Below, one piece after another: positions 54,601-56,310 of a stretch of 64,000 bases of DNA (position 1 is its first letter; every line of letters starts with the position of its first letter). Where the stretch lies: assembly GCF_024700885.2 (NCBI RefSeq), contig NZ_CP117016.1, one strand, 5' to 3'. A program made the position numbers. Source of the stretch: Escherichia coli. GTDB taxonomy: Bacteria > Pseudomonadota > Gammaproteobacteria > Enterobacterales > Enterobacteriaceae.

Positions 54601-56310
54601 GGTTATGAAAAAGAGATTAGAGATTACGGGTTAAATATGTTCGGTATGTACGGCAGAAAAGTAAAGTTATCCCATTCTGAGATGATTGAAGATAATAAAA
54701 AAGACTTGGCTGTAAATGAACATGGGTTGACATGTCCATTAACACAAGATTGCTCAAATAGATGTATTGATTATATTAATCCAGAGCATAAAAAAACGAT
54801 AAAGGCTTTACAAGATGCTGGCTATCTCAAGTAACATCTCAAAGATGGTAATATTTATTTTTGCTATTATAATCGTTGTTTTTTTATGCGTGACTACTTA
54901 TCTTTATTTACACAAAGATGAATCTCTTGTAAGTAAGCATTACATAAACTATATGGCAATACCAGAAAGTGATGGGGTTTTTACATGGCTCCCAGATTTT
55001 TTTCCGCATGTAGCGGTGGATATATCAATATCCACAAATGTAGAAGATGATTATTTTTTTTCTTATTTTTCCCTAACAATCGATGATGGGGGGAGGTTTA
55101 AGAAAACATTGACGGTGAGGGCCAGGGAACAAGTGGCGAAAATCGTATCAGAGAATGATCCAGATACAAAAAAAGTGTGGTGTAAATATGGTAAAATACC
55201 AGGGCAAGGGGATAGCGTAAACCTTTTTTTTGTTGGTGAAATTAATGTTACGCATTATTTTATAACAAATATTGGAGCTGGATTGCCTGATGCTTGTGCA
55301 GAGTAATTGCTTGAATTAAGAGTCTATCCCATATCGAAGTCGTCAACTTCGTAGTGAGGAAAAGTAAAATCCCTGACTGAGAAAAGACATGTCGGCTATT
55401 GTGTAAAGCCATATAGCTCAGACGATGAATATCTACTCGTATTCAGTTGTTTATTGAGGGTGAGTTCCGACCCTGAAACAACAAATAAAATGAACAGTCA
55501 GATAGTTTACATAGAATTGCACTGGTCTTTTACGATATCTGACATTGTGTAATACATATTCAGCCATGCATTAATTAAAATGTTTCGTGTTTAATGTGAG
55601 TCCCTATCTGAAAATAAATAATCCTTCCGGATTAAAATAAATTCTCGCCGGGAAAGAAAGAGGAAATAAACCATTAGCGGAAAACCAGCGGCACGCCAGG
55701 GTGACATGCCCCAGTACGGCGGCCCGATAGTCCAGGGTTCAGCGGGGGTACTGATAGTCGCGCCGACTGCATCGAGAACTCCATACAACTTTTTACGGAA
55801 CGTCACCTGATAAAATTTGTTCAGTATCGTCTTTTGAGATTCTCAAGGTTATGGAGTAACCAGACAGAACGGACACCACTGTCGGAGATAAAAACCCCCT
55901 GTTTACGCAGCTCGTTGCTGGCCCGGTGCTGACCATGTGTCGGGAAAGCGACGGTGTAATCAACAACAGCCTGTTCAGTTGCCTCATCGGTACGGTTCTT
56001 AAGGTTAGGAGCGCGGCGACTACGATTAATCTGCGCATCCACACCGCCTTCAGCGGCCAGTTCGCGGTAACGATAAAACGTTTCACGCGAAACGCCCATG
56101 ATTTTACAGGCTTTTGATACGTTGCTGAGTTCTTCAGCCAGATTGAGCAAACCGGCTTTGTGTTTGATGACGGGATTGGCAGTATGAAGCATGAGAGTTA
56201 CCTCTTGTTTTGGATAAGGATTCGACACTCATATCAAAACCGGTAACTCTCAACCTTTCAAGGCCATGTGTCAGATCAAGTCGCGACTAATACAAATACG
56301 TCCCTCATCA

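Follow-up and report, generated by a model that had tools for sequence, protein, structure and literature searches.

We find that the two short features lying between the Rhs immunity-type gene and mnmH in this Escherichia coli genome are, with a probability that we put at about 85%, a non-functional deletion scar that is already catalogued in K-12. Both pieces are the annotated K-12 genes ylbI and ylbG and occupy the same place, between the immunity gene of the rhsD locus and mnmH/selU; that they already bear names in K-12 goes beyond the earlier note on this DNA. The window, by which we mean the whole 64,000-nt stretch that was analysed, contains the rhsD locus in the gene order ybbP, rhs, immunity-type gene, ylbI/ylbG scar, mnmH/selU, and allS, as read from the ORF listing and from a comparison of annotated genomes (Table 1). 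The resident Rhs, taken as a whole protein, matches the Pfam families RHS_repeat, RHS, and DUF6531. Proposed as a record of past rearrangement at the Rhs locus, the segment is supported as such; it pairs an rhs repeat with a broken insertion sequence (IS).

Table 1. Features of the rhsD locus between rhs and mnmH/selU, in window coordinates
Feature	Position	Strand	Description
Resident rhs	50623-54834	+	1403 aa; full-length
First 95 nt of resident rhs	50623-50717	+	Counterpart of the fragment at 55673-55767 (75/95 identical)
Immunity-type gene, ybbD-type	54815-55306		163 aa, intact; NF011298 match, full length
AT-rich non-coding spacer	55307-55627	.	3' of the intact ybbD-type immunity gene
rhs leader remnant	55628-55672	+	Shine-Dalgarno-like AGAGGA 8 nt before ATT
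ylbI (K-12 b4632)	55673-55767	+	Codons 1-32 of a putative diverged rhs gene; ATT start
Second IS piece	55768-55836	-	IS nt 931-999, transposase residues about 277-299; 56/69 identical (81%) to the L005 copy
ylbG (K-12 b0502)	55821-56192	-	123-codon ORF, 372 nt; HTH-only N-terminus of an IS481-family transposase
First IS piece	55828-56294	-	IS nt 1-467, 5' UTR and transposase codons 1-121; 444/467 identical (95%) to the L005 copy
Left inverted repeat, TGTATTAGTCGCGACTTGATCTGA	56271-56294	-	Part of the first IS piece
Chromosomal backbone	56295-56307	.	13 nt between IS end and mnmH stop
mnmH/selU	56308-57402	-	Stop codon 56308-56310

The fragment ylbI begins at an ATT codon (55673-55675) and repeats the start of the resident rhs gene. 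In an ungapped comparison, its 95-nt rhs-homologous stretch is 79% identical to the first 95 nt of that gene, while the next-best 95-mer on either strand of the 64-kb window reaches 47 of 95 against a background mean of 24.5 (sd 4.4). The rhs 5' repeat described in the earlier note is thus real, and the alignment that it proposed between 55.6-55.8 and 50.6-50.8 kb stands far above the window background, although the true span is 55673-55767 rather than ~55676-55780. At the protein level, 28 of 32 residues are shared with the start of the resident Rhs, the replacements being M1I, T13P, R27L, and G29V. Identity to rhs collapses past codon 32, and the frame then crosses unrelated sequence, antisense to the IS, to a TGA at 55808-55810. 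The early stop that had been reported is therefore present, but because it falls beyond the rhs homology and in antisense IS sequence, it is a product of the truncation junction and not a nonsense mutation within rhs sequence. Similarly, the attribution of a PAAR N terminus holds at the level of a motif: a single PAAR-like KPAARQGD is all that ylbI has of this domain, and against a PF05488 cut-off of 27 bits, the fragment scores 22 and the resident Rhs N-terminus 17. The ATT start was also correctly seen, whereas its derivation from ATG is something that we infer from homologues, as no E. coli genome keeps ATG; all 2,796 genomes that carry ylbI are without it, and a 70-nt query with ATG swapped in gave at least one mismatch in every one of them. 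While ylbI has N-terminal homology to the Rhs/YD-repeat family, the YD/RHS repeats, the core end (RHS domain), and the C-terminal toxin are all absent from it, making it a gene fragment and no member protein.

On the opposite strand, the ylbG ORF has the N-terminal helix-turn-helix (HTH) of the IS481 family, matching Pfam HTH_29 (E = 4e-19) and positions 2-112 of 284 in the NCBIfam model NF033577, 'IS481 family transposase' (E = 6e-25); its score of 88 bits lies below the whole-protein cut-off of 224 because the N-terminus alone remains. The ORF starts at the ATG at 56192, an end at 56228 being merely a mechanical GTG extension, and its stop falls directly after an internal deletion junction. 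Using tblastn, we identified full-length IS481-family transposases (346 aa) on E. coli plasmids with about 90% amino acid identity to YlbG. A full-length relative of the IS in CP056609 (83,365-84,565; locus L005, 1899-3099) measures 1201 bp and has 24-nt inverted repeats beginning TGTATTAGTC as well as an apparent 7-bp AATAAGG target duplication. This 1201-bp element, known from E. coli plasmids and chromosomes (CP056609 and a plasmid of strain 042, for example), is 95% identical to the remnant over IS nt 1-467. On the strength of these alignments, ylbG encodes the HTH N-terminus of an IS481-family transposase, and the element's left inverted repeat is still joined to it. Moreover, the earlier description of an adjacent, opposite-strand transposase N-terminus without its catalytic domain is borne out, the NF033577 match ending at position 112 and the rve/DDE domain being missing.

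The IS remnant exceeds the ORF in both directions: it runs as far as the inverted repeat at 56294 and, by way of a 69-nt piece, to position 55768 at the opposite side. BLAST of the window against the full-length IS resolved two collinear pieces that overlap by 9 ambiguous nucleotides, the second of which also matches an 'integrase core domain' pseudogene. Unlike the intact 1201-bp element, the remnant is without IS nt about 468-930, which encode most of the rve/DDE domain (residues 162-267 of the full-length relative), and it has lost IS nt 1000-1201, so that the right inverted repeat (IS nt 1178-1201) is absent, and with it the second flank against which a target-site duplication would be read. 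With both of these segments gone, the remnant cannot transpose. The rhs stump joins the second IS piece at 55767/55768, in the interior of the IS and at neither of its ends, which identifies the junction as a deletion end-point and not as an insertion site. The second piece is the more diverged of the two and could stem from a different IS copy. As a candidate for microhomology at the ylbI/IS junction, CCGACTG is found in both parents, but the two copies are offset by 4 nt, and we make no claim for it. Separately, the Rfam family psRNA2 (RF02349) gives a sub-threshold match on the plus strand at window 56195-56366 (30.9 bits against a gathering threshold of 65; E about 1e-5), which aligns with the IS481-family left end, an indication that IS481-type termini are part of what this family models.

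Upstream of ylbI, the leader is identical to that of the resident rhs at only 19 of 60 positions. In BLAST, homology to several vgrG-linked 'RHS element core protein' genes sets in 18-20 nt before the start codon, and alignment with a yncH-vgrG-rhs locus (L004) yields a ribosome-binding region, AGAAGGAA...CAT(G/T), in common with the ylbI leader; leader homology beyond about 20 nt needs an indel, and its extension is a reading of the alignment. The leader folds no better than its shuffles (z = +1.1). In E. coli, the spacer that separates ylbI from the immunity gene is specific to this locus and occurs once, save for one 190-nt block (about 55440-55627) that is 85% identical to part of an rhsE locus (L009, 7001-7185), with about 100 nt nearly identical. 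The rhsE-locus copy is preceded by an unrelated small ORF and extends precisely to an ISAs1 element, and the block has the appearance of an Rhs-locus 'end' sequence common to both loci. Its small ORFs are not conserved, and a 38-codon minus-strand ORF (55451-55567) was dismissed, as the rhsE-locus copy reads as frameshifted in the alignment. An Rfam search of the spacer returned no match, and a scan of it for promoters and terminators found no consensus of either kind and nothing above shuffles. Previous studies have placed a constitutive sigma-70 site, TCGTCA-19-TAAAAT (55340-55370), in the ybbD-ylbI spacer by genomic SELEX (PMC3946193) and have assigned an FNR ChIP peak to ylbI (PMC1802558).

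The same junction is present in K-12, and comparison of the rhsD-mnmH interval across 5,426 complete E. coli genomes, a comparison that had been suggested earlier, found the IS remnant (ylbG) beside mnmH in 2,903 and ylbI in 2,796, at about 99% identity. K-12 ylbI is alike in position (between ybbD and ylbG), in its 96-nt extent, and in its ATT start, and K-12 ylbG is the same 372-nt ORF beside selU/mnmH, with three amino acid and three nucleotide differences, none of substance. Over the collinear segment (NC_000913, 529131-530016), the window and K-12 differ at 4 of 515 nt outside ylbI and at none within it. One further strain, annotated by PGAP, is 100% identical over 55307-56310; there, the fragment appears as a 96-nt 'hypothetical protein, incomplete, missing C-terminus' (window 55673-55768), and ylbG as a 'helix-turn-helix domain-containing protein, incomplete, missing C-terminus' (window 55827-56192).

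A degenerate 29-mer specific to ylbI gave a single match over 100,044 species representatives, on an E. coli-like contig, although a pattern this strict could miss diverged relatives. That match (CASFSC010000074.1, 3995 bp; L010 hereafter) is binned in a metagenome-assembled genome of an 'uncultured Alistipes sp.'. It is 96.7% identical to the E. coli locus across the rhs tip, immunity gene, ylbI, ylbG, and mnmH, and is almost certainly a mis-binned Escherichia contig. Relative to L010 and K-12, the spacer-ylbI-ylbG segment differs by no more than about 1%, compared with 3.6% for mnmH and about 5% for the toxin tip and immunity gene; going by these figures, the scar segment seems to be younger than its flanks, or to have been exchanged more recently.

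Conversely, about 2,500 genomes are without the whole segment, and some of these have an empty site. A query joining the full-length IS to the mnmH flank found no place in the 5,426 genomes where an intact IS lies beside mnmH at 80% coverage or more; intact copies do occur elsewhere, on chromosomes and plasmids. The mnmH gene is present in essentially all genomes, and where the IS remnant is missing, homology starts at window 56301-56315. In alignments with loci that are without the island, backbone homology resumes at the IS end, which fits insertion of the IS into native sequence just downstream of mnmH. Three genomes without the remnant (L006, L007, and L008) show three other states of the ybbP-mnmH interval: about 140 bp with REP-like palindromes, as read from the sequence; a dinQ-like type I toxin gene; and, in ST131, an Hcp-family type VI secretion system (T6SS) effector followed by four DUF2931 genes. 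The interval (window 50195-56307) thus presents as a multi-state hot spot, with T6SS-type effector cargo in two of the four states seen.

Rhs loci are known to carry orphan toxin-immunity modules and to undergo C-terminal displacement (Jackson et al. 2009, PMC2935791; Poole et al. 2011, PMC3150448). Like these modules, ylbI is part of an rhs gene and is found in an Rhs locus, downstream of a complete rhs-immunity pair. Orphan modules, however, are 3' fragments, composed of a core end, a toxin tip, and an immunity gene, that can be re-joined to the main gene via the shared core, whereas ylbI comes from the 5' end, carries neither toxin nor immunity gene, and offers just 95 nt of diverged homology. 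After ylbI there is no toxin- or immunity-like ORF, and the IS remnant follows directly. Neither ylbI, ylbG, nor their junction is mentioned in either of the two papers.

The surroundings of the scar do differ between K-12 and the window. The K-12 MG1655 interval reads rhsD, ybbC, ylbH (pseudogene), ybbD (pseudogene), ylbI (pseudogene), ylbG, and selU, and thus has an extra RhsD-CT/ybbC and a frameshifted ybbD where the window has an intact ybbD-type gene right behind the main rhs. The RhsD-CT/ybbC module, flanked in K-12 by a 212-nt repeat of the core 3' end, is exactly what the window is without, and the ylbH toxin tip, an orphan pseudogene in K-12, sits on the main rhs in the window strain. 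Window 54157-55306 compared with K-12 (L002, 4999-7131) presents a textbook C-terminal displacement, or the reversal of one. The Rhs C-terminal tip itself (54369-54834, residues about 1250-1403) has no Pfam assignment above threshold, and shows a weak sub-threshold likeness to serum amyloid A (PF00277; E = 0.005; 17.7 bits against 30.8).

Where the fragment came from is best judged from how it differs from the gene that it repeats. Because ylbI shares strand and locus with the resident rhs, and homology between them begins exactly at the start codon, it could be supposed that the 5' end of the resident gene was duplicated in tandem, either during insertion of the island or in the event behind the IS truncation, with neutral decay of the copy thereafter. 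Among the 18 differing codons, however, 14 changes are synonymous and 4 non-synonymous, which points to purifying selection on two functional genes, and thus to divergence as functional paralogues, and not to the decay of a local copy. The leader is likewise unrelated to that of the resident gene and resembles those of vgrG-linked rhs genes, in keeping with an origin in a diverged paralogue. Moreover, with spacer and IS differing by no more than 1% between strains, a neutral divergence of 21% confined to ylbI would be implausible, and we regard a tandem duplicate as very unlikely. We infer instead that ylbI is what is left of another, diverged rhs gene, now gone as a complete gene, which would exclude the neighbouring rhs as its source and which is a further addition to the earlier note. 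BLAST of ylbI finds the starts of rhsB, rhsD, and 'RHS element core protein' genes, but the closest rhs start in the 5,426 genomes is only 75-82% identical, and no full-length rhs with a ylbI-like 5' end at more than 82% identity was found among them; the presumed parent gene is thus missing from this set.

Whether the remnants still do anything is a separate matter. The least probable of the readings considered, and one to which we give hardly any weight, is that ylbI serves as a usable homology arm, recombining with the full-length rhs to delete or exchange the rhs-immunity cassette. Lying 5 kb further downstream, it repeats the rhs start in direct orientation, Rhs loci do rearrange via repeated core sequence, and the difference between the window and K-12 amounts to exactly the segment flanked by the 212-nt core-end repeat. 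RecA-dependent recombination in E. coli has a minimal efficient processing segment of roughly 23-27 bp, and divergence at the level of 79% identity is subject to mismatch-repair anti-recombination. ylbI and the rhs start share no exact run longer than 17 nt, which is below that minimal segment, so a role as homology arm is unsupported. Furthermore, a chimeric query representing the predicted deletion product, in which the region upstream of rhs is joined to the IS remnant, found no such product in any of the 5,426 genomes: about 3,200 match at least one flank, with a median of two separate places per genome that never come within joining distance, so that no IS remnant has rhs upstream sequence a few hundred bp or less away. 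The invariance of ylbI between the window and K-12 likewise means that there are no conversion tracts. The suggestion in the earlier note that the repeat could still act as a homology arm consequently fails, on 95 nt of homology at 79% identity as much as on the missing products. Co-option of the remnants, with ylbG as a domesticated HTH regulator, ylbI translated from its ATT into a 45-residue peptide, or both, is scarcely more credible, and we consider it very unlikely. The window, K-12, and L010 all have an intact ylbG ORF, AGAGGA would be a strong Shine-Dalgarno sequence 8 nt ahead of the ATT, a sigma-70 promoter and an FNR peak have been reported for the ybbD-ylbI spacer, and about half of E. 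coli keeps the segment. Conversely, changes in ylbG are overwhelmingly non-synonymous (12 non-synonymous to 4 synonymous against the IS transposase, 3:0 between the window and K-12 alleles, and 4:0 against L010), a pattern that, in small numbers, is consistent with no constraint; about 2,500 genomes do without the segment; the ylbI frame runs into antisense IS sequence; and our scan found no consensus promoter. The ybbD-ylbG interval also tolerates 7-kb insertions, and its use as a neutral landing pad for large insertions (PMC2847246; bioRxiv 10.1101/2020.01.04.894907) implies that the segment is dispensable. Transcription of the scar is possible, given the published sigma-70 site and FNR peak. 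That the scar is partly active, through sigma-70 transcription and the Shine-Dalgarno sequence yielding a 45-residue peptide with the PAAR motif, or through an HTH-only YlbG acting as a domesticated repressor, has a similarly slim chance; if so, such a repressor might, for example, act on incoming IS481-family elements via their common left end.

Returning to a non-functional deletion scar, we hypothesize that downstream of the resident rhs-immunity pair there was once a second rhs gene, paralogous but diverged, whose leader was of the vgrG-linked type, and that the IS had inserted into the backbone beside mnmH. One or two illegitimate (non-homologous) deletions, in whichever order, would then have taken out the core and the right end of the IS, along with all sequence as far as codon 33 of the second rhs. 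The change to an ATT start and the three other amino acid changes would represent decay after, or at, inactivation. A single old event is suggested because none of the 2,796 ylbI carriers has ATG and none of the 2,903 ylbG carriers has an intact IS there; the scar would thus have arisen once, spread to about half of E. coli, and been passively carried since, neither transposing, encoding a toxin, nor measurably recombining with the full-length rhs.

For the biology of the Rhs locus, these results matter little beyond correct annotation. Their modest additions are an exact map of the two IS pieces, which places the left inverted repeat 13 nt from the mnmH stop codon; evidence for a lost, diverged second rhs gene, rather than the neighbouring one, as the source of ylbI; and a population-scale negative for recombination between ylbI and full-length rhs. 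The K-12 RefSeq record now lists ylbG as a CDS ('putative DNA-binding transcriptional regulator') and not as a pseudogene. More properly, ylbI would be labelled an rhs 5' relic and ylbG an IS481-family transposase N-terminal relic, rather than a candidate recombination substrate or regulator.
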